DNA of 64,000 nt, taken from positions 8,121-72,120 of IMG/VR virus record IMGVR_UViG_3300027874_000011; one strand, written 5' to 3'. The notes below the pieces were generated by a model, which had not been told where the DNA came from, did not search any database, and was given only the letters and a program-made list of their open reading frames with translations. Below, piece by piece: positions 1 to 61,186 of this stretch. This DNA is from a virus. Its lineage: Duplodnaviria > Caudoviricetes. The number at the start of each line of letters is the position of its first letter. Position 1 is the stretch's first letter. The translations under genes were made by a program, and so were the position numbers.

Positions 1-933
1 AACCCTATCGGCCTCATCATCATCGCCCTGGTCGCCCTGGGCGCGTATCTGGTGTGGGCCTACAACAACGTGGACTGGTTCCGCGATGCGGTCAACAACC
101 TGTGGAAGGCGATGCAGGACTGGTGGGCCTGGTTCAGCACCGAGCTTATGCGCGAACTGCACGCCCTGGGCGACCTGTTCCAGCAACTCGGCACGTGGAT
201 CTCCGAGAACGGCGACACGATCAAGACGGTGATCGAGGCGCTCATGGGGCCACCCGGCCTGCTGCTCATCGCGTGGCAGCAGGACTGGGGCGGCATTCAG
301 GAGAAGGTCCAGGGCTTCGTGGACTGGTTCAAGACGGTGCCAGGCATGATCTCCAGCGCGGCGCAAGCGGTCGGCAACGCCTTCTCCACGATTGGCACGG
401 CCATCTCCAACGCGCTCAAGAACATCAACATCGACATCGGTCCGTTCCACTGGCGCGGCGGCACCTTCTCGTCGGACATCCCAGGCATCTCCGTCATCGG
501 GGACGCCTTCAGCGCTGGCGGGACGAAGGTGCACGAGGCGCTGGACACGCTCGGCCAGCAGAACGCCCAGGCCAACGCCAGTAGCTACAGCCTGGTCGGT
601 GAACTCGCGGGCGGGCCAACACCCGCCGAGGCGGGCCTCCAGATCATGCAGACGGGTGGCTGGTTGCGCGAGCCGATCATCGGTGTCGGCCCCTCGGGGA
701 CGCAGTACAGGCTGCACGCCAACGAGTACATCTCGCCGGCTGGCGCGCACGCCGAGAACGCGGCAGCGGCGCATGCGGGGCGCGGCGGCGGTGTGACGCT
801 CAACGTCTCGCCAGGAGCGGTGCAGATCAGTGGAGCCAACGGGCCTGCCCAGGATTGGGCGACGGCCGCAGACGCGCTGTGGGACGACCTGTACGCCAAG
901 CTGAGCCGCGCGCTCGATAACCGGGTGTCCTGA
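1..933 (+). CDS. Tape measure protein, C-terminal part (5' truncated by window edge)
   Basis: Frame 1 is open from base 1 (NPIGLIIIALVALGAYLVWAYNNVDWFRDAVNNLW), a typical tape-measure repeat. Trp-periodic amphipathic repeats; lies directly upstream of the LysM tail gene. Confidence 0.9.
   Translation, partial: NPIGLIIIALVALGAYLVWAYNNVDWFRDAVNNLWKAMQDWWAWFSTELMRELHALGDLFQQLGTWISENGDTIKTVIEALMGPPGLLLIAWQQDWGGIQEKVQGFVDWFKTVPGMISSAAQAVGNAFSTIGTAISNALKNINIDIGPFHWRGGTFSSDIPGISVIGDAFSAGGTKVHEALDTLGQQNAQANASSYSLVGELAGGPTPAEAGLQIMQTGGWLREPIIGVGPSGTQYRLHANEYISPAGAHAENAAAAHAGRGGGVTLNVSPGAVQISGANGPAQDWATAADALWDDLYAKLSRALDNRVS
916..929. promoter_or_regulatory. Degenerate copy of 14-bp palindrome (GATAACCGGGTGTC, 2 mismatches)
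   Basis: At the end of the tape measure gene; weaker than the other copies. Confidence 0.35.
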
Positions 934-1733
934 TGGTTGCCCAGGTCAAACTCGTCAACTACGCCGACCCGACCGACGAGTTGATCTTCCCGATCACCCC
1001 GTCCGAGCTACCCGAGACGGCCGACGCGAGTGCCAAGAGCTTCAACGTCATCGGCAAGGGCAGCTACTCGTTCCCTGACGGCAGGGCCGAGTACAAGCTG
1101 TCGATTGCGGGCTACTTCCCAGGCAAGGGCCGCTGGACGCCGTTCCCCGAGAAGAAGCTCGAAAACCTGCCGCACATCCACGACTGGCGGCACCCCGAGG
1201 AACTCACCTTCCAGCTACGCGAGTGGCTGAACAACAAGGCCAAGCTCAAGTACGTCGCGGACAGCAAGGCGGGCCTGATGCAGGTACCGGTGTTCTTGAG
1301 CAAGTACTCCTTCACCAAGAAGGGGCCGGCTGGCGACATCGTGTACCAGTTGGATTTCGTGGAGTGGCGCTCGCTGTCGGTGTTCATTGACGACGGTGGG
1401 CCGAGCGGCGGCGGCTCCAGCGGCGGCGGCAGCGATAGCTCACAGAGCGCGGGCGACGGAGACGCGGGCGAAGAAGACGCCAACCCGACGACCTACACCG
1501 TCCAGCCCGGCGACAACCTGACGTTCATCTCCAAGCGCTTCCTGGGCGACGGCGGGCGCTGGCCCGAGATCTACGACGCCAACCGCGACACCATCGGGGA
1601 CGACCCGAACATGATTTCGCCGGGCATGGAGCTTCTGATCCCAGGCGGCACGGTGGCCGAGCCGAATCTGGACGGCTACACCCCGATGGGGACTGACGCC
1701 ACGGTCGGTTCAGACGTGGGAGATGGAGGCTGA
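933..1733 (+). CDS. LysM-domain tail/baseplate protein (XkdP-like)
   Basis: C-terminal LysM (TYTVQPGDNLTFISKRFLGDGGRWPEIYDANR...ISPGMELLIP); position right after the tape measure gene as in PBSX-type tails. Confidence 0.9.
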   Translation: MVAQVKLVNYADPTDELIFPITPSELPETADASAKSFNVIGKGSYSFPDGRAEYKLSIAGYFPGKGRWTPFPEKKLENLPHIHDWRHPEELTFQLREWLNNKAKLKYVADSKAGLMQVPVFLSKYSFTKKGPAGDIVYQLDFVEWRSLSVFIDDGGPSGGGSSGGGSDSSQSAGDGDAGEEDANPTTYTVQPGDNLTFISKRFLGDGGRWPEIYDANRDTIGDDPNMISPGMELLIPGGTVAEPNLDGYTPMGTDATVGSDVGDGG

Positions 1734-3826
1734 TGGCCCAGGTACCGCCCGACCTCGACACGCTCGAACTCACCTCCGAGGGTGGCCTCACCGACACCGG
1801 CGACCCGATCCAGATCGAGGCCAATCTCCCCGCGCAGAGCGGCGATGCCATCGTCCCGACGCCAGCGGACTGGGCGAGCATGGCGTACGCGGTGCATGCC
1901 GACTTCGGCGGCGACGTGGGCGGCGGCAAGATCCCTGTCTCGGCGCTGTCGTGGGAGGAGCAGTCGGGCGAGCTTGCCACGCGCATCACCCTCCAGTTCC
2001 CCGACTACCCGATGGACGGCGGGCAGCGACTGTCGAAGCTCATCCAGCTTGGCACGCCGCTGACAGTGCTCGCGGCGATGGGTAGCTCGCCGTTCCAAGA
2101 GGTCGCGCGCGGCATTGTGGAGGAGATCGCGCCCAACGACGGCACCGGCGGCACGTTCGAGGTGGTCGCCTACGACCCGATCAAGGCCACGCTCGACTCC
2201 AAGGTGGATCGCTTCTACGAGTGGGGCAAGACGCCCAAGGATGTGATCCAAGACATCCTGGGCAGCGGCAGCGGCACGCCAGACGACCCGGACGGTGGTT
2301 GGAACGTGCCGTTCGGCCGACTCGACCCGATGCTCGATACGCCCTTCAGCGGGCCGTACACGGTCAAGGCGCAGACCATCGCGGCGGTGCTGGCCGATTG
2401 CGTCAATCAGGCCATGACGCTGGCGGGCACCGACAACAACAACCGCCTGGTGATCCGCAGCACCCTGGGCATGATCGAGATCACCCAACCGGGTGGCAAC
2501 AACCCGGTCTACTGGCTGCGCGAGGACGCCGGTCAGGATGTCTCCAGCGTCAGGGAGCACATCTCGATCACCGACATGGTGACCCGCGTCCGCGTGACGG
2601 GCAAGAGTGTCGCGGACGCCGCGCCTGGGCTGGTCGGCATCCTCGACTCATCACAGGCCAACTACGGCATCACGCGCCAGGAGATCATCACCCTGACGAC
2701 GCACACGAGCATCGAGGAGGTCGAGAAGCAGGCGCGCCAGATGCTCAACCAGAAGGGTTCGCCCAAGCACGACCGTGCGATTGAGGCTCCCGACGTGCCG
2801 ATGCTGCGCAAGTACGACATCGTGCGCGTGACGGCGGGCACGATGGACGACCACTTCTACGTCGAGTCGGTGACCCACGACGAGGCTTCGCGCAAGATGT
2901 CGCTGACGCTCTCGACGCTGCGCTCCGACACGACCAGTGGCGACTCGGGTGTGTGGCACGACGTGCACGAGGACGCCATTCCTGAAGACAGCACCACGGG
3001 CACCTCGGCGGGTGGCTCGACCGTGCTGGTGACGGGTGGCCGCGTAACCGACGCCCAGTTGTACGCGCTGGCGCGCAACGCGGGCTTCACCGGCCAGGAC
3101 GCGATCATGGCCGTGGCGATCTCGCTGGCCGAGGACGGGACTTCTGATCCGCAGGCGCGCAACTTCAACCCAGGTCCGCCGCCGACGACCGACCTGGGCC
3201 TGTGGCAGATCAACTCGATCCACTGGGGTCAGGGCGGCATCGGCAGCGAGGGCGATCTGGTCGATCCACAAAAGAACGCCAACGCCGCGCACATCATTTG
3301 GGCCGAAGCCGCCAGTCGCGGACTCAACGGCTGGCAACCCTGGAGCACGTATCCCAACGCCTACAAGAAGTACATGGACCGCGCGACGGCCGCGTCTCAG
3401 GCTCCCGCCCAGGCCGCGCCGACGACCCAGGCGGCGGTGACCGGCGCGAAGGCCGCGCCCAACAGCGCGCTCATCAACGCCATGAACCAGTGGGTCAACG
3501 TGCCGTACGTCTATGGCGGCAACAGCAAGGCGGGTGCCGACTGCTCGTACTTCACCCAACAGGTCTACAAGAGCGTCGGCGTCAACCTGCCCAGGACGGC
3601 CCAGGCTCAGTGGGATGCCACGACCCATGTCAGCACACCGCAGTTCGGGGATCTGTGCTTCTTCCAGAACACCTACCCGGGCGCACCACCAGGCGTCTCG
3701 CACGTGGGCATCTACGTCGGCAACGGCCAGATGGCGAACGAGATCGAGCCGCATACCAAGCTGACCAACATCAACACCCAGGAGTGGAAGTCCAAGTTGG
3801 TCGGGTTCGGGAGGCCGCATAACTGA
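1733..3826 (+). CDS. Baseplate hub (XkdQ/gpD-like) fused to lysozyme-like transglycosylase and NlpC/P60 peptidase
   Basis: N-terminal late-control/hub region. Middle segment [10 protein letters not shown]...TDLGLWQIN...NANAA...WQPWSTY is lysozyme-like. C-terminal PYVYGG...ADCSYF...LPRTAQAQ...HVGIYVGNG is NlpC/P60 with Cys/His. Confidence 0.88.
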
Positions 3827-5445
3827 TGCCTGGTGGACGTGGCGGGCTGGTCGGCACCGGTGCCTCGGGCATCGCGGATTTGCTGCTGTCGATCCAGCCC
3901 GAGCAGCACCATCCGCCCGAGTACGCCTCGATGGTGGACGACCAGGGCATCCTGAAGCTCACCCCCGACTCGATGCCCAACGTCAAGTTCCCGCCTGGGG
4001 ATAGCTCGCCAGGTGGCTACTCGGTGCTGCAGTACCTGAATCTGGAGCCTGAATACAACACGGCCACGGCACTCACGGGCGTGACCATCCAGGGCACGCT
4101 GGTCGAGCACTACCACCAGATCCCTGGGACGGCGCTCAAGGACGGCGACCGCGTGGTCATCATGTGGACAGGCTTGTCTGCGGTGGTCATCGGCGTGATC
4201 GTGCCGAGGCCGCTCGACGGCAGTGGATCAGACCCTGGCGGTGGCGGCGGCGGCGGGGGTGGTGGTAGCCAGGGACCAGCGGGTCCGCCAGGTCCAGCCG
4301 GGCCTGCCGGACCACCAGGGCCAGCGGGGTCACCAGGCGCGCCAGGAGCCAACGGTCAGCCAGGTCCACAGGGGCCGCAGGGTGTGGCCGGGCAGCAGGG
4401 TGCCGCAGGGCCGAGCGGTGCGACCGGTGCGCAAGGGGCTGCTGGCAGCACGGGACCAGCGGGTCCGCAAGGTCCGACCGGGGCGGCTGGACCCCAGGGG
4501 CCTGCTGGACTAGGTGTCAACATGAAGGGCACCGTCGCGAGTCAGGCGAACCTGCCTGCCTCGGGCAATACGGTCAACGACGCCTGGGTCACCAACGACA
4601 CCGGCTACATGTGGGTGTGGAACGGCTCCACATGGGTCAATTCAGGCTCAGCACGTGGTCCAGCAGGCCCCACGGGTCCGCAAGGTGCCAACGGTCCGAC
4701 CGGTCCGACAGGGCCTGCAGGGGCCACCGGAGCGCAAGGCGTGGCTGGTCCATCCGGACCCCCAGGTGCCACGGGCGCGGTCGGTCCAGCGGGTTCGACC
4801 GGCCCCACTGGGGCCACAGGAGCCACGGGTGCGACCGGCCCGACTGGGGCTGCGGGCGCGACTGGTCCAGCGGGTGCTCCGGGCGGGTCAGCCATCCACG
4901 AGGAGTTCCTACCGCCCAACGCTGGCACGACGGTGATCGTCAGCCAGCTACCGTCTGCCGTCATCTACGTCTCGCGCAACGGCGTGGTGCAGTCCGTTAC
5001 GGACGGCCACTACTCGCTCACCAACCAGACCTTCACCTTCACGACGGCCTTCGATGGCACCGAGCGCGTCTCGGTTGGCTATACGGTGGGCGGTATCGGG
5101 GGGCAGGGTCCGCCAGGTCCGACAGCGGGCATGCACGAGGAGTTCCTACCCGCGAACGGGGCGCTGACGATAGGACTGGCGAACCCGGTCACGCTCATCA
5201 TGACCGTGGCGCGCTCAGGCATCATCCAGTCCCAGGCGGATGGCAACTACTCGCTGTCGGGCCAGACGCTGACGTTCTCGGACGCCTTCGACGGTACCGA
5301 GCGCGTGGTGGTCGCGTACATCTCGAACACCTATGTGCCGCCCTCGTCGGTCGCGGGTGCCATCGACACCAATCTGCGGGCGTACATCATCCAACTCATG
5401 GGCACGGCCGACCCGAACGGTCCGCCACCGGTGGCGGGACCATGA
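3826..5445 (+). CDS. Baseplate spike-like (XkdR-like) N-terminus fused to collagen-like repeats and a tandem-duplicated C-terminal domain
   Basis: [11 protein letters not shown]...VVIGVI end-of-OB-fold motif, then a poly-Gly linker, two (Gly-X-Y)n blocks and two ~70-aa repeats HEEFLP.N...[17 protein letters not shown]. Confidence 0.75.
4273..4884 (+). repeat. Coding collagen-like Gly-X-Y repeats (two blocks with a short non-collagen spacer)
   Basis: [16 protein letters not shown]... and [13 protein letters not shown]... visible in the translation. Confidence 0.95.
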
Positions 5446-7106: not shown

Positions 7107-8224
7107 GCGTCCAAGTCGTCCCGACCAACTCGCTCAAAGACCTGGGCGTGACCTCGCCCAAGCTCGCCGCCAGCGTTGGCGTCACGGGCAATCTGAGTGC
7201 TGGTGGCGACGTGGTGATCGGCGGCAACTACCGCTTCGGTGCGGCTAACAGTCCCGAGACGATCTGCAAGAGCGCGACTGGCATTCTGCGGGTGACGGCT
7301 GGAATGCAGATCGACAGCACGGTTGGTGTCGGTACTCCTCCCGCCAACAACGTCGGCGTCTACATCACGGGCAACCTGAACTTCCAGCAGACGGGGCAAT
7401 ACGGGATCTTCTGTAACCCGACGATTACCACGGCGGCGACGGCGGGTGCCTACGGGATTTACACGTCGCTAGTGACGGCGAACAACCTCGCGACGAGTGG
7501 GTTGAACACGATTGCCGCAGGGCCTCCGACTCTCGGCTCTGGTACCAGCGCGACCAACATCAACGGTCTGTACGTCGCCAATCAGGGTGCAGCGGGCGTC
7601 ACCAACGCTTATGGCGTCTATGTCGTGTCGCAGGCTGGTGCGAGCGGCGTGAACTTCGGCATGTACGTCAACTACACCAGCGCGTTGACGGGCGGGCCGT
7701 ACGCACCTGGCAGCGCGGTCTTCAACAACACTTCGACGGGCAACGGTACGGCCAGCCTCATCACCATCAGTTGTGGCGGCTACAACCAGTGGGGTGTCGG
7801 CTTCGGCACGATCTATGGCCTTTGGTGGCACGCTTTCATTGCCAGCAGCCAGATCCAGTGGGGCTTCGACGGTTCTCGCCTGCGATTGGCGAGCGACACG
7901 GGTTGGAACGCACTGACCTTCCAGAATGGCTGGACGAACTACTCGTCCCCGTATGGACCCGCTGGCTATCGCAAGATGCCTGACGGGATCGTCCTTCTCC
8001 GTGGCCTCGTCCAGGGCGGCACCGCCGGGGTGATCTGTACGTTGCCAGCCGGGTTCCGGCCGGCTCAGACGCAGCTTGTGGTGGCAGCGATAAACGGTCC
8101 CGGTGTCTTGCGTCTTGACGTTACGTCCGCCGGAAATGTCCAGACGATGGAACTGCTCTCGGGCGTCAACAGCATGACTGGTTGGATCTCGCTCAACAAC
8201 ATCGCGTTCCTGGCAGAAGGATGA
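7103..8224 (+). CDS. Tail fibre/receptor-binding protein 2
   Basis: N-terminus paralogous to fibre 1 (LGVTSPKLA). C-terminal TGWNALTFQNGW...YRKMPDGIVLLRGLV...CTLPAGFRP is a common phage minor-tail domain. Confidence 0.8.
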   Translation: MSVQVVPTNSLKDLGVTSPKLAASVGVTGNLSAGGDVVIGGNYRFGAANSPETICKSATGILRVTAGMQIDSTVGVGTPPANNVGVYITGNLNFQQTGQYGIFCNPTITTAATAGAYGIYTSLVTANNLATSGLNTIAAGPPTLGSGTSATNINGLYVANQGAAGVTNAYGVYVVSQAGASGVNFGMYVNYTSALTGGPYAPGSAVFNNTSTGNGTASLITISCGGYNQWGVGFGTIYGLWWHAFIASSQIQWGFDGSRLRLASDTGWNALTFQNGWTNYSSPYGPAGYRKMPDGIVLLRGLVQGGTAGVICTLPAGFRPAQTQLVVAAINGPGVLRLDVTSAGNVQTMELLSGVNSMTGWISLNNIAFLAEG

Positions 8225-9585: not shown

Positions 9586-9950
9586 TGGCGAACTACACGA
9601 TCAGCGCGACCGACGATGAGGATGCCGCCATGCGATGGGCGACCACCGAGTACAACACGGGCAACCCGGACCAGGCCGACCTGGGCGTCGAGCAGTTCGT
9701 GCAGCAGGCCGTGCAGATGCTGTTCGAGGGCTACGCCAGGTCGTACCAGCAGAGCCAGAGCCAGTTCACCGCCGAAGATCTCGAAGCGGCGTACCGTTCG
9801 GCCGACGCCGACATTCAGCAGGGCGCGCTGGCGCTGGCCTTCAATACCGTCACTCCTGAGATCCGCAACCAACTGGCGCACATGCTCAAGGCCGAGGTCG
9901 GGGCGGGCGTAGCCGCCAGACCACCACTTCCAGATGAGGTCAAGTACTGA
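9585..9950 (+). CDS. Small hypothetical protein, possible fibre assembly factor
   Basis: Translationally coupled ORF directly after the fibre genes. Confidence 0.65.
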   Translation: MANYTISATDDEDAAMRWATTEYNTGNPDQADLGVEQFVQQAVQMLFEGYARSYQQSQSQFTAEDLEAAYRSADADIQQGALALAFNTVTPEIRNQLAHMLKAEVGAGVAARPPLPDEVKY

Positions 9951-10351
9951 TGAAACGCATCCCGATGCGCACCATCCACGACGAGCACTTCCCGCCCGGC
10001 ACACCCGAGTTCGCGCAGAGCGTCATGGTGTGGGCCGACGTGATCCGCCAGGTCATCCGCCGGCCGATGGACCCATCCAAGGGCGCGGACATCGAGGAGA
10101 TGCGGCGCGGCATCCGCGTGCTTGACGCGGTGGACAGGGCCGGCCAGTACCTCGAACTCGAAGACGCCGACTACGAGCACCTCAAGGAGAAGACCAAGCT
10201 CATGCAGTGGGCCTTCGTGGACCGTCGCCTGGTGACGTTCATTGACGACGTGAACAACGCCACCGAGGAGATCCCCGAGTCACCCAACGGCCACCCTGCC
10301 ATTCTGGACACGGCGGCTCCTGGCTGGCCTGACGTGAGCACGGTCCGATAA
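9950..10351 (+). CDS. Hypothetical protein, possible fibre assembly chaperone
   Basis: Coupled ORF; the helical LELEDADYEHLKEK motif resembles small proteins that follow phage fibres. Confidence 0.65.
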   Translation: MKRIPMRTIHDEHFPPGTPEFAQSVMVWADVIRQVIRRPMDPSKGADIEEMRRGIRVLDAVDRAGQYLELEDADYEHLKEKTKLMQWAFVDRRLVTFIDDVNNATEEIPESPNGHPAILDTAAPGWPDVSTVR

Positions 10352-10361
10352 CCGGTTATCG
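10346..10361. promoter_or_regulatory. Palindromic operator-like site CGATAACCGGTTATCG
   Basis: Perfect 16-bp palindrome overlapping a stop codon, 3 bp before the gp25-like start. Confidence 0.75.
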
Positions 10362-10364
10362 CTA

Positions 10365-14807: not shown

Positions 14808-14820
14808 GAGAGCACCGCCC

Positions 14821-16977: not shown

Positions 16978-16988
16978 AAGGAGGGCCT

Positions 16989-19882: not shown

Positions 19883-20104
19883 TTACGTGAGGGCGACGAT
19901 GCCCTCCTCGCGTAGCTGTTCGCGCAGTGCCAGCCGCAGCGCCTCGTGGCGGCTGAGGCCGTGGCGTCTGGCGTACACGACCAGGCCGGCCATCAACGCG
20001 GGGTCGAGCCGCACGCTGACGACGCTCGGGTGCGCTCCCTGGGACGGCTGGCGAGGGCCGTCCACGATTGTCTCAGGGCGCACGATCTTGATCGGGCGTG
20101 TCAT
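19883..20104 (-). CDS. Ribbon-helix-helix (CopG/Arc-like) DNA-binding protein
   Basis: VVSVRLDPALMAGLVVYARRHGLSRHEALRLALRE. Confidence 0.8.
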   Translation of the reverse strand: MTRPIKIVRPETIVDGPRQPSQGAHPSVVSVRLDPALMAGLVVYARRHGLSRHEALRLALREQLREEGIVALT

Positions 20105-26474: not shown

Positions 26475-26524
26475 GGGATCACCCTCCTCTCTTGGTTTCG
26501 CCGTTCCTTCTTCGGCTTGATTCA

Positions 26525-26554
26525 ATTCTAACGGACGTTCGCACGGATGCGCAA
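26525..26554 (-). promoter_or_regulatory. Sigma70-like promoter TTGCGC-N18-TAGAAT upstream of the DUF1257 operon
   Basis: Spacer atccGTGCGAacgtccgt. Confidence 0.75.
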
Positions 26555-26581
26555 CCTTTTCCTGGCCGGTTCGCTCGAAGT

Positions 26582-26595
26582 GATAACGGGTTATC
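26582..26595. promoter_or_regulatory. Palindromic operator-like site GATAACGGGTTATC
   Basis: 27 bp upstream of the -35 box of the DUF1257 operon promoter. Confidence 0.75.
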
Positions 26596-26956
26596 GGTCA
26601 CCGTGCGCCTCCCACCAGCGGCGTAGCTCGTCGGTCACTTCCTCCATAGGCGACGTGTCGTTGGGGTCGTGCTCGTGCGGCCAGCCGGTCCAGGCGATGC
26701 TGCCGTCGTAGCGGTGGACGCCGTAACGCACGATAGCCTGCTGCGCCTCCTTCTCGGTGTCGAACGAGAACACGGGTAGCGCCGAGCGCGTGGCTTGCCG
26801 CTCGCGCGGACCGGCCCACTGCGCAACCGGCTTGCCGCGTGTCCAGCGCGGGTTGGGCGGATCGCCCCGTTTGCGTCGGACCCTGTAACTCAGGGTTCCG
26901 TCTGCTCATATGAGGACTTGGTAGTCCCGCGTCAGGTCGTCGGCGTTGTAGGTCAC
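26591..26956 (-). pseudogene. 121-codon ORF interrupted by an in-frame TGA at codon 17 (pseudogene or readthrough)
   Basis: GGAGG RBS and GTGA overlap at 26956; MTYNADDLTRDYQVLI*ADGTLSYRVRRKRG...LPVFSFDTEKEAQ stays in frame to TAA at 26591. Confidence 0.6.
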
Positions 26957-28388: not shown

Positions 28389-28877
28389 TCAGAAGGGCGA
28401 GTCGTCCGGCTCGGTGGCCTCGACCTCGCGCTCCAGGGCTTCTATCGGGATGGGCAGGACTTTCGGCCTGCGCGCCTCGTGCAGGATCTCCTCGATGCGG
28501 TTGAGCAACTGCCGCTCCTCGCTGACGGTGCCGAGCACGCGCCGCAACTCGCTGACGGTGTTGCCGACGAACTCCAAGTCCTCGCCGTCGAGCCGTTCCA
28601 GGGCGAAGTCTTCGAGAGCCTGCAGCAGGTTATCGACCTCGGGCTTCTCGATCAGCGTCTCGATGGTGAAGTCTTCACCCTCGCGCTCCAGGCGCTGCAA
28701 GTCGTCCAGGCGGACGCGGTACGCGCCGCCGATGCGCACGCCAGGGATGCGGCCCTGGCGAATCCATCTCCTGGCCGTGTCTTCATTCACGTCGTACCGC
28801 TCCGCGATCTGCTCGGTGTTCAGATACACGGGCGGCAGCGTCTTGGTGTTGTGGGCTAGTGCTGCGGTTTGGGTCAT
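28389..28877 (-). CDS. Excisionase/AlpA-like HTH (HTH_17) DNA-binding protein
   Basis: YLNTEQIAERYDVNEDTARRWIRQGRIPGVRIGGAYRV. Confidence 0.9.
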   Translation of the reverse strand: MTQTAALAHNTKTLPPVYLNTEQIAERYDVNEDTARRWIRQGRIPGVRIGGAYRVRLDDLQRLEREGEDFTIETLIEKPEVDNLLQALEDFALERLDGEDLEFVGNTVSELRRVLGTVSEERQLLNRIEEILHEARRPKVLPIPIEALEREVEATEPDDSPF

Positions 28878-30104: not shown

Positions 30105-30182
30105 AATTGGCCTCACACGCACCAGTGAGCAAACGTTGAGAAACGCACGCGCTCGGCGTTGCCTGTGTTAGGCTCGGATGGC

Positions 30183-30428
30183 GTGACGACCGAGGCAACA
30201 GTCGCCCCGAGCGCCAGGCCCGTATACCTCACCACGGAGGACATTGCGGTGCGCTACGGGGTCAACGAAGACACAGCTAGAAGGTGGATTCGCCAGAAGC
30301 GCTTACCCGCGATCAGGATCGGAGGGGCGTACCGCGTACGTCTGGATGACCTGTTGCGCCTGGAGCGCACCATCGCTGCCGAGCAGAGCAGCGGCGCACC
30401 CGCCGATACCGACAACGAGCCGTTCTAA
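30183..30428 (+). CDS. Excisionase/AlpA-like HTH (HTH_17) protein, paralogue of 28389-28877
   Basis: YLTTEDIAVRYGVNEDTARRWIRQKRLPAIRIGGAYRV; start uncertain (30159-30183). Confidence 0.85.
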   Translation: MTTEATVAPSARPVYLTTEDIAVRYGVNEDTARRWIRQKRLPAIRIGGAYRVRLDDLLRLERTIAAEQSSGAPADTDNEPF

Positions 30429-31631: not shown

Positions 31632-31901
31632 ATGAACGATCCCATCGTCCTGATCGCGGCCATCATCGGCGCGCTCGCCGGTGCTGTCAGCTTCCTGTTC
31701 CGTCAGCTAGTGCTGACCAAGAACCACCGCATCAACGACCTGACTGACGAGCGCGACTACTGGCGCAAGATCGTGCTGGCGTTCTCGAAGCTGCCGGATG
31801 GCACCACCGTGCCCGACTACGACGCCTGGTTCCAGCAGCAGCACCGCGTCACACCCACCGGTCGCGAGCCATACCTCATCGACCGTCCACCGGAGGTGTG
31901 A
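31632..31901 (+). CDS. Single-TM small membrane protein (holin-like context)
   Basis: PIVLIAAIIGALAGAVSFLF followed by a charged coiled segment. Confidence 0.65.
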   Translation: MNDPIVLIAAIIGALAGAVSFLFRQLVLTKNHRINDLTDERDYWRKIVLAFSKLPDGTTVPDYDAWFQQQHRVTPTGREPYLIDRPPEV

Positions 31902-31942
31902 TGCGGTCGCCACCTCCGCGTCGTCGCGCTACCCTGCGCGAC

Positions 31943-32119
31943 ATGGCAACCACGACTCCGCGCACCTACTCAACGTGGTGGATTATCAAGCTCATCTTGC
32001 TGATCCTGGCGCTCATCTGTTTCGGGGCGGCGGGCTTCTTCGGCGTCACCAGTGCTGGCCCCGTCATGCTGGTCCCGGCTGGTCTGTTCTTTGGCTTCGG
32101 CTCGATGCTGCCCATCTAG
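31943..32119 (+). CDS. Two-TM small membrane protein
   Basis: WWIIKLILLILALICFGAAGFFG...MLVPAGLFFGFGSMLP. Confidence 0.65.
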   Translation: MATTTPRTYSTWWIIKLILLILALICFGAAGFFGVTSAGPVMLVPAGLFFGFGSMLPI

Positions 32120-32136
32120 CGATAACCGGTGATCGC
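32119..32136. promoter_or_regulatory. Palindromic operator-like site GCGATAACCGGTGATCGC
   Basis: One mismatch; at the end of the + strand island. Confidence 0.7.
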
Positions 32137-40445: not shown

Positions 40446-40708
40446 CCAGGTGTCTCGGTTCGACTAGTGTCGAGGGTGGCGATGGCGAAAGCTAAACGCC
40501 GAACGCCGTCGAGCGGCCGAATGCTCAGGACGGTCGGCAAGGTGTGGGACTGTGCGAGGTGCATGGACCAGATGCTTGGCGATCTGCCGCCGGGCGAACG
40601 GTGTTGGGAGCACAACCCGACACCCGAGGAGCGCGAGGCGCATCCCGAGCGCTATTCGAGATCGAAATTCGCAGGATCAGCGACTTTGAAGGAGGACAAG
40701 GCTCCGTC

Positions 40709-41998
40709 ATGACGATTCTCGACAGTCTCGAAGCCGAGGTGGAGGTGCTCGACCTGGCGCAGGGCCTGGACACCACCGACCTCGAAGGCAAAGACGACGA
40801 CACGCTCATCAGTGAGGCCCGCTGGCACGTCGAGCAGGCGCGCTTCCATCACGGCCAGTCGCTGCTGCACGGCCAGGAGGCCGGTCGGCGGCTGCTGGTG
40901 CTGCACGCCAGGACCGCACGTCGAGGTCGCTCTGGCGAGTTCTCCAACGCGCTGGTCGAGGAAGTCGGCATCTCGCGCAGCCACGCCTACAACCTGATGG
41001 AGCTTGCGCGGCCAGAAAACGTCCAGCGCGTTGGACAATTAGCCGAAGACCCGGACGCCTCGATCCGCCAGGCACTGGAGATGCTGCACGCCGAGCGCCG
41101 TGAGGAGCGCCGCGAAGCTGCACGCGCCGAGCGACAGGCGCGCATGCAGTTCCCGGCACCGGTGGATCTGCCCGCCAACTTCAACATCGACGTGGCTGAG
41201 ATGCCAGCGCTGCCCATCCCGGACGGGTTGGCCGACTTGATCGTCACGTCGCCGCCGTACGGCCTGGGCATGGCGTACCACGAGTCTGATGACTCTGAGG
41301 GCTACGAGACGTATCTGACGCACGCGCTCGAATGGTCCGATGAGCTATTCCGGGTGGCCGGGCCGCAGGGTCGTCTGTGCCTGAACGTGCCACTGGACAT
41401 CTCACACGACGGCGGCTACTTCGCGCCGAAGCCGATCTACGCCGACTGGGTGGGCGCACTCAAGGAGGCCGGCTGGCGCTACCGCACGACGATTGTGTGG
41501 AACGAGGACAACATCACGCGGACGACGGCGCGTGGCAGCGTGGACAGCCCCAACTCGCCGCACGCCATCGCCCGGGTGGAGATGATCGCCGTGATGTACA
41601 AGGGCATGTGGAATCTGGAGCGCCAGGGCCAGTCGGCGGACATCACCCACGACGAGTGGCTCGACTGGACCAACGGCTTGTGGACGTTCCCGGGTGCCAG
41701 CCCGATCTCGCCGGATCACTGCCCGGCCCCGTTCCCCGAGGAGTTGCCGAGGCGCTGCATTCGGCTGTTCAGCTTCCCGAATGACGTGATCTTGGACCCG
41801 TTCGTGGGCAGTGGCACCACCGGCGTGGTGGCGTACGAGACGGGCAGGCAGTTCTACGGCTTCGACCGCTCCGCGCTGTACATTGAGCAGGCCCGTGAGC
41901 GAGTATCAAGCGCCATCGCTCGTCTGCGCACGAACGGGCACATGGCGCAACCACGACAGCCCGCCTCTGAGTTTCAGGGAGCAGCAGCAGGTTTTTGA
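40709..41998 (+). CDS. DNA methyltransferase (N4-C/N6-A, beta class) with N-terminal DUF3102-like domain
   Basis: LIVTSPPY (motif IV), APFPEELPRRCI, ILDPFVGSGTT (motif I); N-terminal EAGRRLL...GEFSNAL...GISRSHAYNLMELA. Confidence 0.92.
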   Translation: MTILDSLEAEVEVLDLAQGLDTTDLEGKDDDTLISEARWHVEQARFHHGQSLLHGQEAGRRLLVLHARTARRGRSGEFSNALVEEVGISRSHAYNLMELARPENVQRVGQLAEDPDASIRQALEMLHAERREERREAARAERQARMQFPAPVDLPANFNIDVAEMPALPIPDGLADLIVTSPPYGLGMAYHESDDSEGYETYLTHALEWSDELFRVAGPQGRLCLNVPLDISHDGGYFAPKPIYADWVGALKEAGWRYRTTIVWNEDNITRTTARGSVDSPNSPHAIARVEMIAVMYKGMWNLERQGQSADITHDEWLDWTNGLWTFPGASPISPDHCPAPFPEELPRRCIRLFSFPNDVILDPFVGSGTTGVVAYETGRQFYGFDRSALYIEQARERVSSAIARLRTNGHMAQPRQPASEFQGAAAGF

Positions 41999-42173: not shown

Positions 42174-42187
42174 GATAACGGGTTATC
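42174..42187. promoter_or_regulatory. Palindromic operator-like site GATAACGGGTTATC
   Basis: 2 bp before the TTG start of the second methyltransferase. Confidence 0.75.
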
Positions 42188-42189
42188 AC

Positions 42190-45179: not shown

Positions 45180-45260
45180 CTGTCCCTCCTTCGGATATGA
45201 AGATCACCAGGCCCAGGCTGTCAGCCTGGCCCATGTGTCGGGCACACTATAGGTGAAAAC

Positions 45261-45728: not shown

Positions 45729-45752
45729 AGATGAGCTAACGTAAGCGTTGCC

Positions 45753-55922: not shown

Positions 55923-55968
55923 AAATTCGCAGATCTAGCGGATTTGAGTTTGGAGTTGAACGTTTAGC

Positions 55969-56868
55969 ATGCCATCTTCCCGAGCACTTGCCACCACAAC
56001 CGACCCCATCGAACTTCTGGAGCAGGCCGAGGTGTTACGTCGGCGTGCCGAGCAGAGTTTCGGGGAGTACGCATTGGAAGCCGGCCGCTTGCTGATTGCA
56101 GCCAAGCGGCGGGTTGCCCACGGCAGTTGGGCCAGCCATCTGCAGACCCACACCGGATTTTCGCAGCGCACGGCCGAGAGCTACATGCGAGCGAGGCGAA
56201 TCTACGAGGGGCTGCCGGCCAGCGAAAAGGCCGCTGTCTTGGAGCAGCCGTTCAGTAGATCTTTGCTGGTGCTGTCGCAAGCGCCCAGGCAGAGCAGCAG
56301 TGAAGACCGGGCGCTGGCCGAGCTACCGGACAAGCGTGAACGTCGCGAGTTGCCTCCGAGGGGCGTGCCCGAAAACGGCAGCACCCAGGCCGTCGAGAAT
56401 TTTCTGAATGATCGCGGCCTGGACACGACCCAGTTGATCGAGGACTCGTACCACCCGGACGTGGAGACGCCCGAGTTCAAAGGTGAAGCCACTCCCCTCG
56501 ATGACATTCTGGACGGGCCGCAGAAGACGTACGACGACGGGATCTCGCAGCAGGCCATCAACGAGGAGCAACTCCAAGAGTACGAGGAGATGTCCCAGGA
56601 GGTCGCCAGATTAGAGCGCGAGAACCGCGACTTGCAGAACCAGTTGGCCCAGGCGAAAAGCAACCCGCAGCAGATGCGTGGGTGGGATTTTGTGCAGAGC
56701 CTGTATCAGTACCTGCGGGCCGACGAGCCAGCGCGCACACCCGAGAGCCTCGCCAAACGCGCCGCCGGTATCCAGGGTGGCCGAGAGACGGTGGCGTATC
56801 TGGAGCAATTCTTCGGAGCCACGCGCAACCACCTCAGACTTGCGGAGGGTGAACCACTCCCCGCGTGA
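55969..56868 (+). CDS. DUF3102-domain protein
   Basis: ALEAGRLLIAAKRRVAHGSWASHLQTHTGFSQRTAESYMR. Confidence 0.85.
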   Translation: MPSSRALATTTDPIELLEQAEVLRRRAEQSFGEYALEAGRLLIAAKRRVAHGSWASHLQTHTGFSQRTAESYMRARRIYEGLPASEKAAVLEQPFSRSLLVLSQAPRQSSSEDRALAELPDKRERRELPPRGVPENGSTQAVENFLNDRGLDTTQLIEDSYHPDVETPEFKGEATPLDDILDGPQKTYDDGISQQAINEEQLQEYEEMSQEVARLERENRDLQNQLAQAKSNPQQMRGWDFVQSLYQYLRADEPARTPESLAKRAAGIQGGRETVAYLEQFFGATRNHLRLAEGEPLPA

Positions 56869-57296
56869 CCAGACCACCGTGGGATGGTCGAGACACAAGC
56901 TGGATGCCCGGGGATCTCACCCGGGCACAGCAGCTTCATTTGTGGGAAGCCAGTGGCGAAGGCATCGACGCGGCGTTCTGGCAATTTCACCGGGCGAACC
57001 CCAGGATCTACGAACTGCTGTGTGGGTACGCCAGGCAAGCGCTCAGGGCCGGTCGAGGTCGCTTTGGGATCAGGATGATTTGGGAGCGGCTGCGGTGGTA
57101 CGTGCTGGTCGAGACAGAAGACCCCACGGGCATCAAGCTGAACGACCATTTTCACTCACGCTACGCACGGCTGATGATGCTGCGCGAAGACGATCTGCAA
57201 GGACTCTTTGAGACGCGGCAACTCAAAACGAGCAGTAGCTTGCCGGCCGTGATGGGCAACGGCCACGTGATCGACGTAGACCCCAATCCGTTTTAG
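56865..57296 (+). CDS. Conserved phage hypothetical protein
   Basis: FWQFHRANPRIY...IWERLRW...KLNDHFHSRYARL...LFETR. Confidence 0.7.
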   Translation: MTRPPWDGRDTSWMPGDLTRAQQLHLWEASGEGIDAAFWQFHRANPRIYELLCGYARQALRAGRGRFGIRMIWERLRWYVLVETEDPTGIKLNDHFHSRYARLMMLREDDLQGLFETRQLKTSSSLPAVMGNGHVIDVDPNPF

Positions 57297-57540
57297 CTTT
57301 AGCCGCTGGACAAGACGCGGCGCATGACGCGCGACAGATCGGCCCACGCGCCCTTGTAGGCCGGCCAGGTATCGCGGTGAGCCGACGCCTTGTTGGGTCG
57401 TTCGGCCCACCACTTCAGATACGCCGCCTGGACGTGGTTGGGAGCCTGGGAAAAATCAGCCCGCACGTCGTCAGGCATACCGGACAGCGGATCTCTAAAA
57501 CCCCTTCGGGAGGTTGTCACGGCGTGTGAGTGTATGCGAA

Positions 57541-58137
57541 CTAACCCGAGGGTGGTGTGGGTTCGTTGGTGACGAAGATCTCGTGGCAGTACTGGCACCA
57601 GGCGACCTCGGGGCCGACTGTTGAAGAACTGAGGAAGATCTGAATCGGCATGCTGTGCAGCTTGTAGCCGTCGAGGTCGTAGTCGGTACAGGAGCGTGCC
57701 GGTGTCTGCTCGCCAGGATCGACGGCCACGGTAAAGGTGATGGTGGTGGTCTGGCCGTTCGAGGCTTGCCCGGTACCCGAGTCGCGGTTGACCGGCAGCG
57801 ACCACGAGATCCCCGAAGCATCTTGTGTAGGTGTCGCGGTGAGCGTGTAGTCCGACCAGTTGCTGTTGTTGTTGGCCTGGACGACGTGGATGGTGTCCCC
57901 CGTCGCCATGACCGCAAACAGTTTGGAGGCCGGCTGTCCCTGCAGATCCGCCGAGGCAAGCTCCAAGATAGACGCCCCCGACCAGTTGCGGCTATCAGTT
58001 CGGAACTCCCCATTGTTGATCGCCTGGGATTCAGGTGAAGGATCACTGAGCGAAGTCGGGTTCGGATCAAGACTTTGAGAGTTCCACGTCCACTGCCCCG
58101 TGTACGTCTGCGTGGTGAACGCCGGCCCAATGCTCAC
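57541..58137 (-). CDS. Hypothetical Ser/Thr-rich beta protein with C-terminal CxxC
   Basis: GTGA-coupled start. Confidence 0.6.
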   Translation of the reverse strand: MSIGPAFTTQTYTGQWTWNSQSLDPNPTSLSDPSPESQAINNGEFRTDSRNWSGASILELASADLQGQPASKLFAVMATGDTIHVVQANNNSNWSDYTLTATPTQDASGISWSLPVNRDSGTGQASNGQTTTITFTVAVDPGEQTPARSCTDYDLDGYKLHSMPIQIFLSSSTVGPEVAWCQYCHEIFVTNEPTPPSG

Positions 58138-58388
58138 GCGCTTACCCGCACGTACTTCACCCACGTCTGTGCATACACCTTCTCAAGGATCACAGCCTTA
58201 CACCACTGCGCCAGCAGCGCCTCGTCAAACTCTACCCTGCGTACAAGCTCCCGAGCCTCGTCACCCTTGAAGTGCAAGGACACCACAATCCCCCGCTGAT
58301 CCGGCGGCGCAAGGAACACCTCGGTCACCTCATCCCCTAGCTCAAAGTCGTCCGGCCCCAGGCCCCGATCTTTAGTGTGCTCGTCCAT
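58134..58388 (-). CDS. Small hypothetical protein
   Basis: MDEHTKDRG...; preceded by a palindrome site. Confidence 0.55.
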   Translation of the reverse strand: MDEHTKDRGLGPDDFELGDEVTEVFLAPPDQRGIVVSLHFKGDEARELVRRVEFDEALLAQWCKAVILEKVYAQTWVKYVRVSA

Positions 58389-58407
58389 GCGCTCAGAGTA
58401 GCTCAGC

Positions 58408-58421
58408 GATAACCCATTATC
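58408..58421. promoter_or_regulatory. Palindromic operator-like site GATAACCCATTATC
   Basis: One mismatch; about 20 bp upstream of ATG 58388. Confidence 0.65.
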
Positions 58422-58429
58422 AGTACGCA

Positions 58430-59250
58430 CACCACCACACCCGGAAATTCCCCAAAAGGAAACCTCAAATTTTCCCAGGGCAGCTTTGGACACCGGTGCC
58501 CAACGGAAAAAGAAGACCTCAAAAAATCCCAGGGGATAGGGGTGTCCAAATTTACACACGCGAACTTTCTGCGCTTTTGTCTGAGCCTCAAAGTTCAAGA
58601 CACCAGGCACTACTAAAGAAAGCCAGGGGTAAACCTTCTCAGGGGACGCCACCCCCGGGCAGTAGCCCCGGCAAAGAAGCCCAGTACCTGAGTCGAGAAC
58701 TAGCCTATGTGGGGGAGTGCCTTGTAGGGAGGGCGGGGTAGGGGGGTATAGGCGGGTGTCCGGACAGGGAGGGTGGGTACCTCCCGGTGAGCAGGGGGAT
58801 AGGGGGGTGCCTGCAGCAAGGCCCTCCACAGGCAGGGGTAACGTAACCGGCCCAGGACCACCCCTGCAGCACGCCCTGTATATGAGGGCTGCGCATGTGC
58901 TCGACTAAAAGGTCTTTGCTAGAGCCTGCTCATACACACACATATAGATGCATATGTACTCACATATCTTAGTATGTGTTGTTGTGCTGTGGGCTGGCTG
59001 GCCTGGGATGGGCAGATTCGTTTGCGTTGTGGGTACGTAGGGGTGGCTCACTAGGCCAGGGAGTTCCCTCGAAGGGATGGCGCATCGTTTGCACAAAGCA
59101 AAGCCGGGTCACACTCTACTGGTCACAAGTAACTCGGGGTTTTGGAAAGCGCGGGGATTATCGAGGGGAGGGGGTTCCCGTAGGGGTTCTAGGCAACAGG
59201 GGAGGGGAGGGGGGATCGAATTGGCTGAAGATGGAGGGGGTCCACCAGGC
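58430..59250. other. Largely non-coding, compositionally distinct region with A-tracts, direct/inverted repeats and G-runs (candidate packaging/terminus or control region)
   Basis: ACCTCAAA-N3-TCCCAGGG at 58462 and 58516; inverted repeat TTTGGACACC 58485 / GGTGTCCAAA 58541; G-runs at 58727-58746; AT-rich 58930-58985. Confidence 0.5.
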
Positions 59251-59394
59251 GTCCAGGGTGGTGGTGATGGTGGGAAGCTGCCAGATGAGCAGGGCGCAGA
59301 GGATGCACAGGAACAGGGCCAGCAGCCAACCTGAGGGTGGGTTGGGGTCACGCTGGACGGAGCGTCTGACGAACCCGTGGCGCTGGCCCTTCAT
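59158..59394 (-). CDS. Small single-TM membrane protein
   Basis: WLLALFLCILCALLIW. Confidence 0.5.
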   Translation of the reverse strand: MKGQRHGFVRRSVQRDPNPPSGWLLALFLCILCALLIWQLPTITTTLDAWWTPSIFSQFDPPSPPLLPRTPTGTPSPR

Positions 59395-59654
59395 TCATGC
59401 AGGCTAACGATCCGCTGCTGTCGGGCTGCTACCTGGGGGTCGATTGTCTTTGCGCGAAGATGTCAACTCCCCCTGAGATCAGGTGGCAAGGGGTGGCGTG
59501 TCACAACTGGTGTGCGAGTGTGTGGGTCAGGCGTACCACGTATTTCTCGTCCAGATAGAAAGCGCGGCGAGGAGCGACATTTGTGACAGGGGGGGGTAGG
59601 CGGGTCGTTTTGAGTGCCGGCTGAGGGGGTGGGTGTGTGAAACTCGCTCGTAAT

Positions 59655-59864
59655 ATGAGCGAGCGACCGAGTAAACCCGCCAAGGAGTGGACGGGTGCGG
59701 AGTTGGCCTGGTGGGAGACGCGGGCGACGTACGCGCTGTGTGGTGATGCGGAGGCGACCAGGGAGTGTCTTGAGGGGGTAGTACAGATGCTGGACGAGAT
59801 CCGGCGGCTGCGCCGAATTGTCCGCCGCCGGGCGCACGCGGTGGTCGAAGCCCGAGCGGGATGA
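59655..59864 (+). CDS. Small hypothetical protein
   Basis: First ORF of a rightward unit. Confidence 0.55.
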   Translation: MSERPSKPAKEWTGAELAWWETRATYALCGDAEATRECLEGVVQMLDEIRRLRRIVRRRAHAVVEARAG

Positions 59865-59867
59865 GGC

Positions 59868-60026
59868 GTGGACGACAGTGGGCAAAACTCGGTTGAGTAC
59901 GGGCTGTTGATTGCGGGGATTGTGGTGCTGGTGCTGCTCGGGGTGGCGCTGTGGGGTGGGGTGCTGCACGACTGGTTCGCGGGCCTGGCGGCGAGCATCG
60001 TCAACCAGGGGCTGGCGGGCCGGTAA
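59868..60026 (+). CDS. flp: Flp/Fap family type IVb pilin (52 aa; not in ORF track)
   Basis: MDDSG|QNSVEYGLLIAGIVVLVLLGVALWGGVLHDWFAGLAASI: prepilin G|xxxxEY motif, hydrophobic helix and amphipathic tail. Confidence 0.8.
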   Translation: MDDSGQNSVEYGLLIAGIVVLVLLGVALWGGVLHDWFAGLAASIVNQGLAGR

Positions 60027-60076
60027 CGTAACCAGGGTTTCGTCCGGACGAAACGAGGTGTATCGTTCCGGACGAT

Positions 60077-60334
60077 ATGCCACGACCACGACAGTACACG
60101 ACAGATGCTGAGCGCAAGGCCGCGTGGCGAGCGCGGGAGCAGGCGAAGTTCGACGCGGCTCAGGATGCGGGCCTGCTGCGCGAGCGGCTGGCGGTGGCCG
60201 AGGGCCGACTCGCCAGGGCCGCTGAGCTATTCAGGGAGATCTCGGACGACGTGAACGCGGCGCTGCGGGGGCGGCACGAGTGCCCGGCAACCCAGGCGCT
60301 GCTGAAGATCGCGATGCGCGGGGCACGCCGGTGA
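60077..60334 (+). CDS. Small hypothetical protein
   Basis: MPRPRQYTTDAERKAAWRAR basic N-terminus; HECPA motif. Confidence 0.65.
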   Translation: MPRPRQYTTDAERKAAWRAREQAKFDAAQDAGLLRERLAVAEGRLARAAELFREISDDVNAALRGRHECPATQALLKIAMRGARR

Positions 60335-60525
60335 ACTTCGTTTGCCAGGGCTGTCACAAGCTGACCCTTGCTTCGCCCGAAGACGACGCGGAAGCTGAAG
60401 CCGAGTGGCGCTCGGTGCCCGGCTGGGAAAACGTGCCCTCCGACCAGCGCGCCCTGGTGTGCGACCAGTGCTGGCGCAAGATCGGCGCGTGGGCCAGGAT
60501 TCACAAGCTGGCGTGGCCCGCATAG
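60331..60525 (+). CDS. Small zinc-finger protein
   Basis: CQGC ... CDQC; GTGA-coupled. Confidence 0.6.
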   Translation: MNFVCQGCHKLTLASPEDDAEAEAEWRSVPGWENVPSDQRALVCDQCWRKIGAWARIHKLAWPA

Positions 60526-60534
60526 CCTGCAGAC

Positions 60535-60783
60535 ATGAGCAACCCGAAGACGTATCCCATCAAGAGCAAGCCGCAGCTTCGTCGCGGGCCTTCGCGGGAG
60601 CAGGCGCTGCAGGGCGAGATCTCGGATCTGAGGACGCGGGTGAAGCTCCTCGAAGGCCGACTGCGCGAGCGCGACGAACTGCTCCAGGCCATCTCGTACG
60701 ACGCCAATGTCGCTCTGTCTCAAACCGGCCACGAGTGCCCCGCCAGTCTGTGTCTGCTGAACTGGTCGCGCGAGCGCTCGTGA
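60535..60783 (+). CDS. Small coiled-coil protein
   Basis: HECPA motif shared with 60077-60334. Confidence 0.6.
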   Translation: MSNPKTYPIKSKPQLRRGPSREQALQGEISDLRTRVKLLEGRLRERDELLQAISYDANVALSQTGHECPASLCLLNWSRERS

Positions 60784-60953
60784 GCAGCAAGCGCCACATC
60801 AGATCCCGCCAGTGCGGTTCCAAGCGCCAGTTCGCGGGCCTGTCCGAAGCTCGACGGATGGTCGCCTTTCAACGGCTGAGGTCGGGCGAGCGCTGGAGCG
60901 CCTATCGCTGCCGCTGGTGCGGCTTTTGCCACATCGGACATGCGCGCGCGTGA
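60780..60953 (+). CDS. Small C2H2-like phage protein
   Basis: CGSKRQF...AYRCRWCGFCHIGH; GTGA-coupled. Confidence 0.65.
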   Translation: MSSKRHIRSRQCGSKRQFAGLSEARRMVAFQRLRSGERWSAYRCRWCGFCHIGHARA

Positions 60954-61186
60954 GCGAGCCGATAACCGGTTATCAGTCCAGCTACTCCCAGGAGCGCCTG
61001 GAGGAGATCGCTCAGTGGGTCCGACAGACGTGCCTGCTGTTTGGCTCGCAGACCTCGACGGCGTACATCGTCGCGGGCTACTTCGTCAGGGGTCTGGAAC
61101 GCGGCCAACCCTGGTCAAACACTCCCGCAGTCGAGCGTCCCAAACGCGGTCGCCCGCTCAAGCAGACTGAGGACAAAGGCTCCTGA
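60950..61186 (+). CDS. Small hypothetical protein
   Basis: GTGA-coupled; PKRGRP AT-hook-like tail. Confidence 0.6.
   Translation: MSEPITGYQSSYSQERLEEIAQWVRQTCLLFGSQTSTAYIVAGYFVRGLERGQPWSNTPAVERPKRGRPLKQTEDKGS
60961..60974. promoter_or_regulatory. Palindromic operator-like site GATAACCGGTTATC
   Basis: Perfect; just inside the 5' end of ORF 60950. Confidence 0.75.

Follow-up and report, generated by a model that had tools for sequence, protein, structure and literature searches.

The question raised by the present locus is what reads a short, perfect palindrome that recurs along a phage genome, and to what end. The DNA concerned (hereafter the window) is a stretch of 64,000 nucleotides, bases 8121-72120 of the 72,120-bp IMG/VR virus record IMGVR_UViG_3300027874_000011, and the element is the 14-bp word GATAAC-SS-GTTATC, where S is G or C. 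Exact matches to GATAACNNGTTATC begin at window positions 10347, 26582, 42174, 52564 and 60961, and there are near-copies with one mismatch at 32121 and 58408 and with two mismatches at 916. The scan against shuffled controls, which had been called for in a preliminary description of the window made from its letters alone, produced no exact match in 100 dinucleotide-preserving shuffles, and the eight matches with two or fewer mismatches compare with 0.40 expected. All eight copies are thus present where that description had placed them, the five exact ones are beyond chance as it had claimed, and the S-S centre that it had pointed out is seen in every copy, near-copies included. With moderate confidence, these palindromes can be read as genome-covering docking sites for one two-fold symmetric protein that binds double-stranded DNA, similar in design to parS or to the KorB operator O_B, and acting over the chromosome as a whole rather than promoter by promoter. 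The sites themselves are real and phage-specific, their sequence is invariant and is read at the level of the DNA, and they are evenly spaced and largely independent of promoters; a bound protein and its action at a distance are our inference.

The array extends beyond the window. A sixth exact copy lies upstream of it in the same record, at record position 4260, and a scan of IMG/VR with the CG-centred 14-mer returned one other multi-copy contig, IMGVR_UViG_3300027874_000010 (G001; 74,412 bp, 65.7% GC), which contains nine exact copies and has near-identical fragments in other samples. The only genes common to G001 and the window's record are tail-fibre repeats. The last 32 nt of the one record match the reverse complement of the last 32 nt of the other at all but one position, and joining the records yields one continuous Cys-rich (zinc-finger-like) open reading frame (ORF), which occupies window 63777-64000 and continues into G001. 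The terminase, portal, protease and capsid genes are found on G001 and are missing from the window's record, and in relatives the capsid module continues directly into homologues of the first genes of the latter. Finally, a longest contig of 118,017 bp is listed both for the exact Mini-A sequence encoded in the one record and for the exact DUF7178 sequence encoded in the other. Because of this end overlap, the complementary module content, the gene order in relatives and the common contig, the two records are parts of one circular or permuted genome of ~146.5 kb, and the idea of two unrelated phages sharing a word read by a host factor was withdrawn. CheckV completeness values for the two records (81% and 67%) are misleading, since together they form ~146.5 kb closing on itself.

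The phage is myovirus-like, with a sheath initiator and a baseplate wedge, and comes from soil. The sequencing runs found to contain it are soil metagenomes only, with no RNA data set listed among them. Logan contigs from four of these runs contain near-identical fragments, with no informative site variants and no pile-up of ends. Megablast found no match among cultured phages, and protein matches to them are remote only. An LGFP repeat, SpaA/SdrD-type domains and weak matches to Microbacterium and Curtobacterium phages suggest an actinobacterial host. Pfam tallies of the phage proteins include no integrase and no repressor-type immunity module.

The merged genome contains 15 exact sites as well as four near-copies, two of which differ at one position and two at two positions, and GATAAC-SS-GTTATC is the most repeated 11-12-mer in each of the two contigs. 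All 12 arm positions are invariant over the 15 exact sites. When these are symmetrised into 30 half-sites, preferences beyond the arms become visible, giving a half-site of the form RSY-GATAAC-C and an extended motif RSY-GATAAC-C|G-GTTATC-RSY (R, purine; Y, pyrimidine). Position -1 is C in 23 half-sites, T in seven and never a purine, so that +1 is G or A; a purine occupies position -3 in 27 of the 30, with a further preference at -2. The centre base next to the arm is C in 24 of the 30, and the centres are CG in nine sites and GG/CC in six, with no GC. Overall symmetry amounts to 16-20 bp per site. The AGC...GCT flanks of the preliminary description are fully present at 52564 and 32121 only; elsewhere the general rule is a pyrimidine at -1 and a purine at +1. 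No compensatory changes are seen in the site arms, so that sequence is conserved, not structure. The motif string was not found in published papers. Near-copies of different lineages share the variant arm GATCAC (the right arm at window 32121, the left arm at 4155 of L162), and arm position 4 may be the least constrained.

The circular gaps between the 15 exact sites range from 5.8 to 16.2 kb, with a mean of 9.8 kb and a coefficient of variation of 0.34, an evenness that never arose in 20,000 random placements. Five or six of the sites are internal to ORFs, among them three long ones (2892, 2305 and 784 aa) that have copies where intergenic DNA is absent. The in-ORF copies are translated in both open frames, twice as DNGLS and four times as ITG/RY, which argues for a constraint on the DNA and not on the peptide. 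Since the spacing is statistically even and copies are squeezed into giant ORFs, the function is more likely to scale with the length of the DNA than to be tied to promoters. The matS- or ram-like organising sites suggested in the preliminary description come nearer to this even spacing and to the parS match described below, although the sequence is not that of matS.

The word also recurs beside a plasmid partition operon, a link that surfaced while single genomic copies were being inspected for neighbouring regulators. On an 11.8-kb, plasmid-like contig of Pseudonocardia sp. ICBG1293 (NZ_JAHLEL010000035.1), with a resolvase, DDE transposases and a DnaB fragment, four GATAAC-N2/3-GTTATC palindromes surround a parA (AAA_31/CbiA)-parB (ParB_N) operon, two upstream and two directly past the stop. 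Judging by their position, these are presumably parS sites. They have in common with the phage sites the word itself, including the C...G flanks, a length of 14-16 bp, AT-rich arms, an S-rich centre and repetition as exact copies. They differ in lying within 2 kb of the operon and mostly having a 3-bp centre, whereas the phage sites, whose centre is invariably 2 bp, are distributed evenly along 146 kb, and the phage has neither ParA nor a recognisable ParB. Related plasmid-type ParB genes are flanked by sister words, TGTTTAC-SSS-GTAAACA three times and TTAACC-GC-GGTTAA twice, the core of the latter being common to the word of a distant phage relative (L173, see below). A chromosomal ParB gene is flanked by the canonical GTTTCACGTGAAAC. 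Three actinobacterial ParB genes that are related to that of Pseudonocardia (L322, G481:C11; L324, G204:C11; L326, G553:C28) each have flanking 14-17 bp palindromes of their own, and the flanking palindromes of such genes are a ready set for a ParB recognition code.

In this interpretation of the phage palindromes as docking sites, a site about every 10 kb on a chromosome of ~146.5 kb would cover the whole genome rather than chosen promoters. A protein would be loaded or nucleated at each site, in the manner of ParB or KorB, and would then be active over the intervening kilobases, where it might silence or block transcription, compact or individualise the DNA, or recruit other factors. The likeness to parS and O_B, in exact wording as well as in design, consists of the AT-rich arms, the S-S centre and the 16-20 bp of symmetry.

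The closest published analogues are the KorB-O_B system of plasmid RK2 (PMC11790492) and the 17-bp repeats of Cluster O mycobacteriophages (PMC4351075). On RK2, dispersed palindromic sites load KorB as a sliding clamp that acts at a distance (PMC11790492). Like the 12 O_B operators of this IncP-1 plasmid, the phage sites are copies of one S-centred palindrome found replicon-wide, some next to promoters and others far away, and their distribution (3 proximal, 12 distal) fits a KorB-O_B regulon; they differ in being on a phage, not a plasmid, and in their density of 1 per 10 kb as against ~1 per 5 kb on RK2, and no KorB domain and no KorA-like partner were found in the phage. In Cluster O, a 17-bp dyad, TGTTCGG-N3-CCGAACA, is present in 34 copies in Corndog, and such dispersed invariant palindromes have been reported in these phages without any function (PMC4351075). 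The Cluster O repeats and the present sites share invariant arms, a variable centre, copies both within and between genes, the lack of a tie to promoters, a predicted dimeric binder and probably the host phylum, so that in arms, centre, gene placement and promoter independence the sites agree with the Cluster O type of dispersed dyad, a class defined by description only. The word and the spacer differ, Cluster O repeats are about five times as dense and are skewed to one genome end whereas the present sites are even at ~10 kb, and Cluster O phages have proteins with ParB-like domains.

Relatives of the phage inform both the word and the design. Conservation in related phages, the absence of which the preliminary description had regarded as counting against functional sites, is partial. 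The site past the capsid stop is kept at 82-84% DNA identity (93-95% identity in the capsid), as an exact copy in L169 and with one mismatch in L162, the flanks having changed; at ~75% it is absent. At the protein level, homologues of the 266-aa protein encoded at window 51804-52604 retain S-D-N-[G/R]-L-S at the position of its site, where the G/R change would fit a change of centre from GG to CG. In distant relatives (47-48% capsid identity) different palindromes occur that are built to the same 6-2-6 plan. One of them, G050, contains ATTCCG-CG-CGGAAT in two exact and two one-mismatch copies, 11-18 kb apart, against 0.05 expected, and encodes an orphan ParB (ParB_N plus HTH_ParB) with one palindrome copy at the 5' end of its gene. 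Another, L173, has GTAACC-GT-GGTTAC twice. When a locus of that size is shuffled 200 times, one or two of the shuffles contain a repeated palindrome of this kind, and two other distant relatives of similar size have no such repeat. The identity of the phage word to the sites of a plasmid partition operon, together with the orphan ParB of this relative, ties the class to biology of the ParB/KorB type. The word of G050 is also that of an unrelated 39-kb provirus (G051, IMGVR_UViG_2831870349_000003), which has five exact ATTCCG-YG-CGGAAT copies at 7184, 13182, 17507, 20135 and 24913; ParB_N was not found in this partial record. A protein common to the phage, G050 and this provirus was considered as a DNA binder and rejected, as its sequence, by eye, looks like a beta-rich virion-protein domain.

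We do not assign the array to the ParB-parS family, as searches for the protein that defines it found none. As a repeated palindrome of 14-16 bp in 15 exact copies with 16-20 bp of symmetry, the array has the parS design; a ParB encoded by the element itself, and a ParA, were not found in the phage. Two kinds of reader would then be possible: a protein of the phage that belongs to some other family, or a ParB acting in trans that comes from the host or from a resident plasmid.

Among phage proteins, the candidates include a helical, helix-turn-helix-like domain similar to DUF3102, which is found on three different partners, two of the three genes touching a palindrome. DNA methyltransferase 1 (window 40544-41998, plus strand) has an N6_N4_Mtase domain at residues 231-451 preceded by the DUF3102-like domain at ~80-205, which is modelled with a predicted local distance difference test score (pLDDT) above 90 and has seven relatives among 1.8 billion representatives. 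The 266-aa protein (51804-52604, minus strand), whose gene is translationally coupled to that of Mini-A (50551-51804) and has a palindrome in its 5' end, contains the second copy, and a 299-aa protein (55969-56868, plus strand) the third, as Pfam DUF3102 at residues 22-83 followed by a C-terminal coiled coil. In hhalign, the domain of methyltransferase 1 is homologous to the 266-aa protein with a probability of 95% and to the DUF3102 domain of the 299-aa protein with one of 93%. In other phages, a ParB-CTPase fold is often found at this place in N6_N4 methyltransferases (PMC12704722). The model of the methyltransferase domain has no Foldseek match, that of the 266-aa protein is poor (pLDDT 58) and matches no fold, DUF3102 was not found in the partial records G050, G051 and G052, and the DUF3102 literature provided nothing useful. 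The domain is accordingly regarded as a weak candidate.

Several observations weigh against a genome-wide array of the parS or O_B kind. ParB_N (PF02195), HTH_ParB (PF17762) and KorB (PF08535) are absent at E <= 1 from all six frames of both contigs, with a gap at the joins possible; the same search found these families in 10-14 of 14 reference genomes. Neither BLAST nor phmmer detected a relative of the Pseudonocardia or G050 ParB in the phage. The DUF3102-like domain shows no profile similarity to ParB (hhalign probability of 0.3% against the G050 ParB). In a wide VIA-align comparison, the ParB/KorB DNA-binding domains 1vz0 (Z 6.0), 6s6h (Z 5.6) and 1r71 (Z 5.4) are in its top 18 of 48,161 PDB chains, but scores of 5.4-6.0 are within the chance range for helical models. 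ParB specificities number in the thousands, and the match to a plasmid parS, found by searching for the word itself, could be a coincidence. The even spacing could in part reflect where intergenic DNA is available. Finally, relatives at ~75% DNA identity (L163, L170, L171) have unrelated sequence at the post-capsid site, which indicates that single sites are dispensable.

A more specific version, put forward only tentatively, is that the palindromes form a ruler-like array of parS type without a phage ParB, read either by the DUF3102-like module, with several effectors sharing one address, or by a plasmid or host ParB, as centromere piracy or titration. If true, the ruler-like array would point to a widespread, undescribed genome-organising system of large phages. 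More generally, the retention of such sites without a recognisable phage ParB poses the question of their reader, with concrete candidates. Should arrays of this kind be a general means by which large phages organise, silence or protect their chromosomes, they would represent a new layer of phage biology and a handle for predicting phage-plasmid or phage-host relations.

The alternatives to genome-wide docking sites are best weighed against the placement of the individual copies. In a genome that is 91% coding, 9 of the 15 sites touch non-coding DNA or a gene end; 7-9 begin no more than 5 nt past an upstream stop codon, and three supply their own TAA as the stop. In four cases a start codon without a Shine-Dalgarno sequence follows after 2-4 nt (gene starts at window 10365 and 42190, at record position 4278, and at merged position 113529 on the other contig), whereas other phage genes have a strong AAGGAG; translation of these four genes by termination-reinitiation is one possibility. 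In the window, the site at 10347-10360 (centre CG) provides the stop of gene 9950-10351, and the GTG start of the sheath initiator lies 4 nt on. The site at 26582-26595 (centre GG) overlaps the stop of the minus-strand gene 26591-26773 and precedes the -35 box of a leftward promoter by 27 nt, its centre being at about -71. That at 42174-42187 (centre GG) lies 175 nt past the stop of methyltransferase 1, with the TTG start of methyltransferase 2 2 nt on. The site at 52564-52577 (centre CC) is extended by 4 bp of flank symmetry to a 22-bp palindrome and falls within codons 9-14 (S-D-N-G-L-S) of the gene for the 266-aa protein, upstream of Mini-A, and that at 60961-60974 (centre CG), in the early region, is 8 nt past the stop of ORF 60405-60953, where local gene calls are uncertain. 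The one-mismatch copies are GATAAC-CG-GTGATC at 32121-32134, flanked by AGC...GCT and 1 nt past the stop of gene 31898-32119, and GATAAC-CC-ATTATC at 58408-58421, in an intergenic stretch of lower GC. The two-mismatch copy at 916-929, in the 3' end of a 1094-aa gene, is doubtful as a working site. The positions reported in the preliminary description, at stop codons, beside starts or next to a promoter, are borne out, the sites overlapping or directly following stops, preceding starts by 2-4 nt or lying upstream of a promoter. Its proposal of a dimeric regulator is upheld to this extent: the motif is a real, selected, two-fold symmetric and phage-specific word, most plausibly bound by a dimeric protein.

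The regulatory half of that proposal, in which the palindromes are classical operators or stoperator-like roadblocks through which a phage regulator switches operons or stops read-through at their ends, is unlikely. Such a role would suit the seven to nine sites just past stop codons, the three with a stop codon on their upstream side and a phage promoter on the other, in the position of an insulator or terminator, and two further sites beside GC-rich hairpins past the terminase and capsid genes. Regulators are also available, as the phage encodes one RHH_1, two HTH_17 and one HTH_3 protein (the last an XRE protein on the other contig), and omega-type ribbon-helix-helix repressors bind two inverted 7-bp units. 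The ribbon-helix-helix protein named in the preliminary description (19883-20104, minus strand; 73 aa) does match Pfam RHH_1, at residues 29-65, and remains a candidate, its gene being the last of the operon whose promoter has site 26582 upstream. The helix-turn-helix protein proposed at 54079 has no Pfam support; the Xis-like pair corresponds to real HTH_17 genes (30159-30428 and 28389-28877), neither of which adjoins a site. The regulator genes have no site in their own control regions.

The promoters argue more directly against operators. The phage promoter family, TTGCGC-N4-GTGCGA-N8-TAnAAT, has ~11 members in the genome (window 19870, 22015, 26544 and 28352, all on the minus strand, and ~7 on the other contig), with a strong AAGGAG ribosome-binding site downstream of each. 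Of the 15 sites, just three are within ~100 nt upstream of such a promoter, among them that beside TTGCGC-N4-GTGCGA-N8-TAGAAT at 26520-26560 (minus strand); their centres, near -61, -71 and -78, differ by non-integral helical turns, and the other 12 sites have no promoter nearby. Four sites lie 2-4 nt before start codons, and the copies inside giant ORFs would block the phage's own long genes. With no integrase or immunity module found, there is also no sign of a lysogeny that needs silencing. A network of promoter operators is thus not what the distribution suggests. Cluster A stoperators (L5 gp71) resemble the sites in having many copies in tiny intergenic gaps of long operons, structural genes included. 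However, stoperators are asymmetric and oriented with transcription, and they occur in temperate phages that encode an immunity repressor. These features are not seen here: the phage sites are perfect palindromes, and their GG and CC centres are divided 3:3 relative to mRNA sense.

It is very improbable that the palindromes are sites of cleavage, nicking or recombination, for instance as starts of recombination-dependent replication. In such a scheme Mini-A, a Spo11/Topo VI-A-like protein, would cut with a 2-nt stagger across S-S, or the PD-(D/E)XK_5 protein would act there. Type IIB enzymes do cut about a dyad with a 2-nt stagger, and a palindrome lies in the 5' end of the partner gene of Mini-A; the other contig encodes the PDDEXK_5 protein, and an ATP-dependent DNA ligase is also present. 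The function of Mini-A is not known (PMC7671362). However, 15 double-strand cuts per genome would be self-destructive, and the assemblies are continuous across the sites. A search for co-occurrence of the palindromes with Mini-A turned up just two distant IMG/VR loci, and matches in cultured actinophages are weak and remote.

Equally far-fetched is a reading of the sites as boxes of an ordinary host transcription factor of the TetR or KstR type, sensed or titrated by the phage. Their AAC-NN-GTT core does resemble the actinobacterial KstR motif. A frequency in the host chromosome similar to that in the phage, which the preliminary description had named as the sign of a host regulon, was not seen: bacterial genomes searched have at most one perfect copy, apart from the plasmid-like parA-parB contig, and no chromosome rich in the word was found among them, the phage's own host not being identified. 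The flanked 16-mer occurs in 58 places in 185,579 species genomes, never twice in a record, and the 46 of these genomes that were checked contain exactly one 14-mer apiece. Among 401 Actinomycetota genomes, six have the word, with at most one copy per genome, and a control word is present in two. The single genomic copies inspected never adjoin a TetR gene, and the idea of a TetR operator was dropped.

Least plausible of all is an RNA element, a short hairpin past stop codons that would stabilise, process or terminate transcripts or couple translation of the next gene: many sites do lie directly past stops, four precede starts without a Shine-Dalgarno sequence and two have extended stems (-9.7 and -7.6 kcal/mol), but hairpins are mostly -3 to -5 kcal/mol, the full palindrome hairpin is absent from 7 of 15 minimum-energy folds, the GG/CC centres have no orientation bias, copies occur inside long ORFs, the window contains no Rfam family and no tRNA, and across the 15 sites neither the U-tract nor the covariation of a terminator or a repetitive extragenic palindromic (REP)-like hairpin is seen.

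By contrast, a true covarying hairpin is found between the capsid gene and the ribosome-binding site of the next gene (L164, 11560-11580, and at the corresponding position in L162 and L163). Its stem is kept by compensatory changes (GATC/GATC, GGCC/GGCC, TAGCTC/GAGCTA), unlike the invariant palindrome, and it is a real RNA or DNA structure.

A few minor observations concern other parts of the genome. An 18-mer match at L160 was discarded as due to chance, and the window has a Flp_Fap Pfam match at 59868-60026 (E 1e-4). On G001, an RNA ligase is encoded in addition to the ATP-dependent DNA ligase, and the PD-(D/E)XK_5 gene, which is homing-endonuclease-like, is located at 61559-61996. The portal gene of the same contig (10038-13727, L098) encodes a 1229-aa protein in which the portal is fused to 2'-5' RNA ligase-like and zeta-toxin-like kinase domains.

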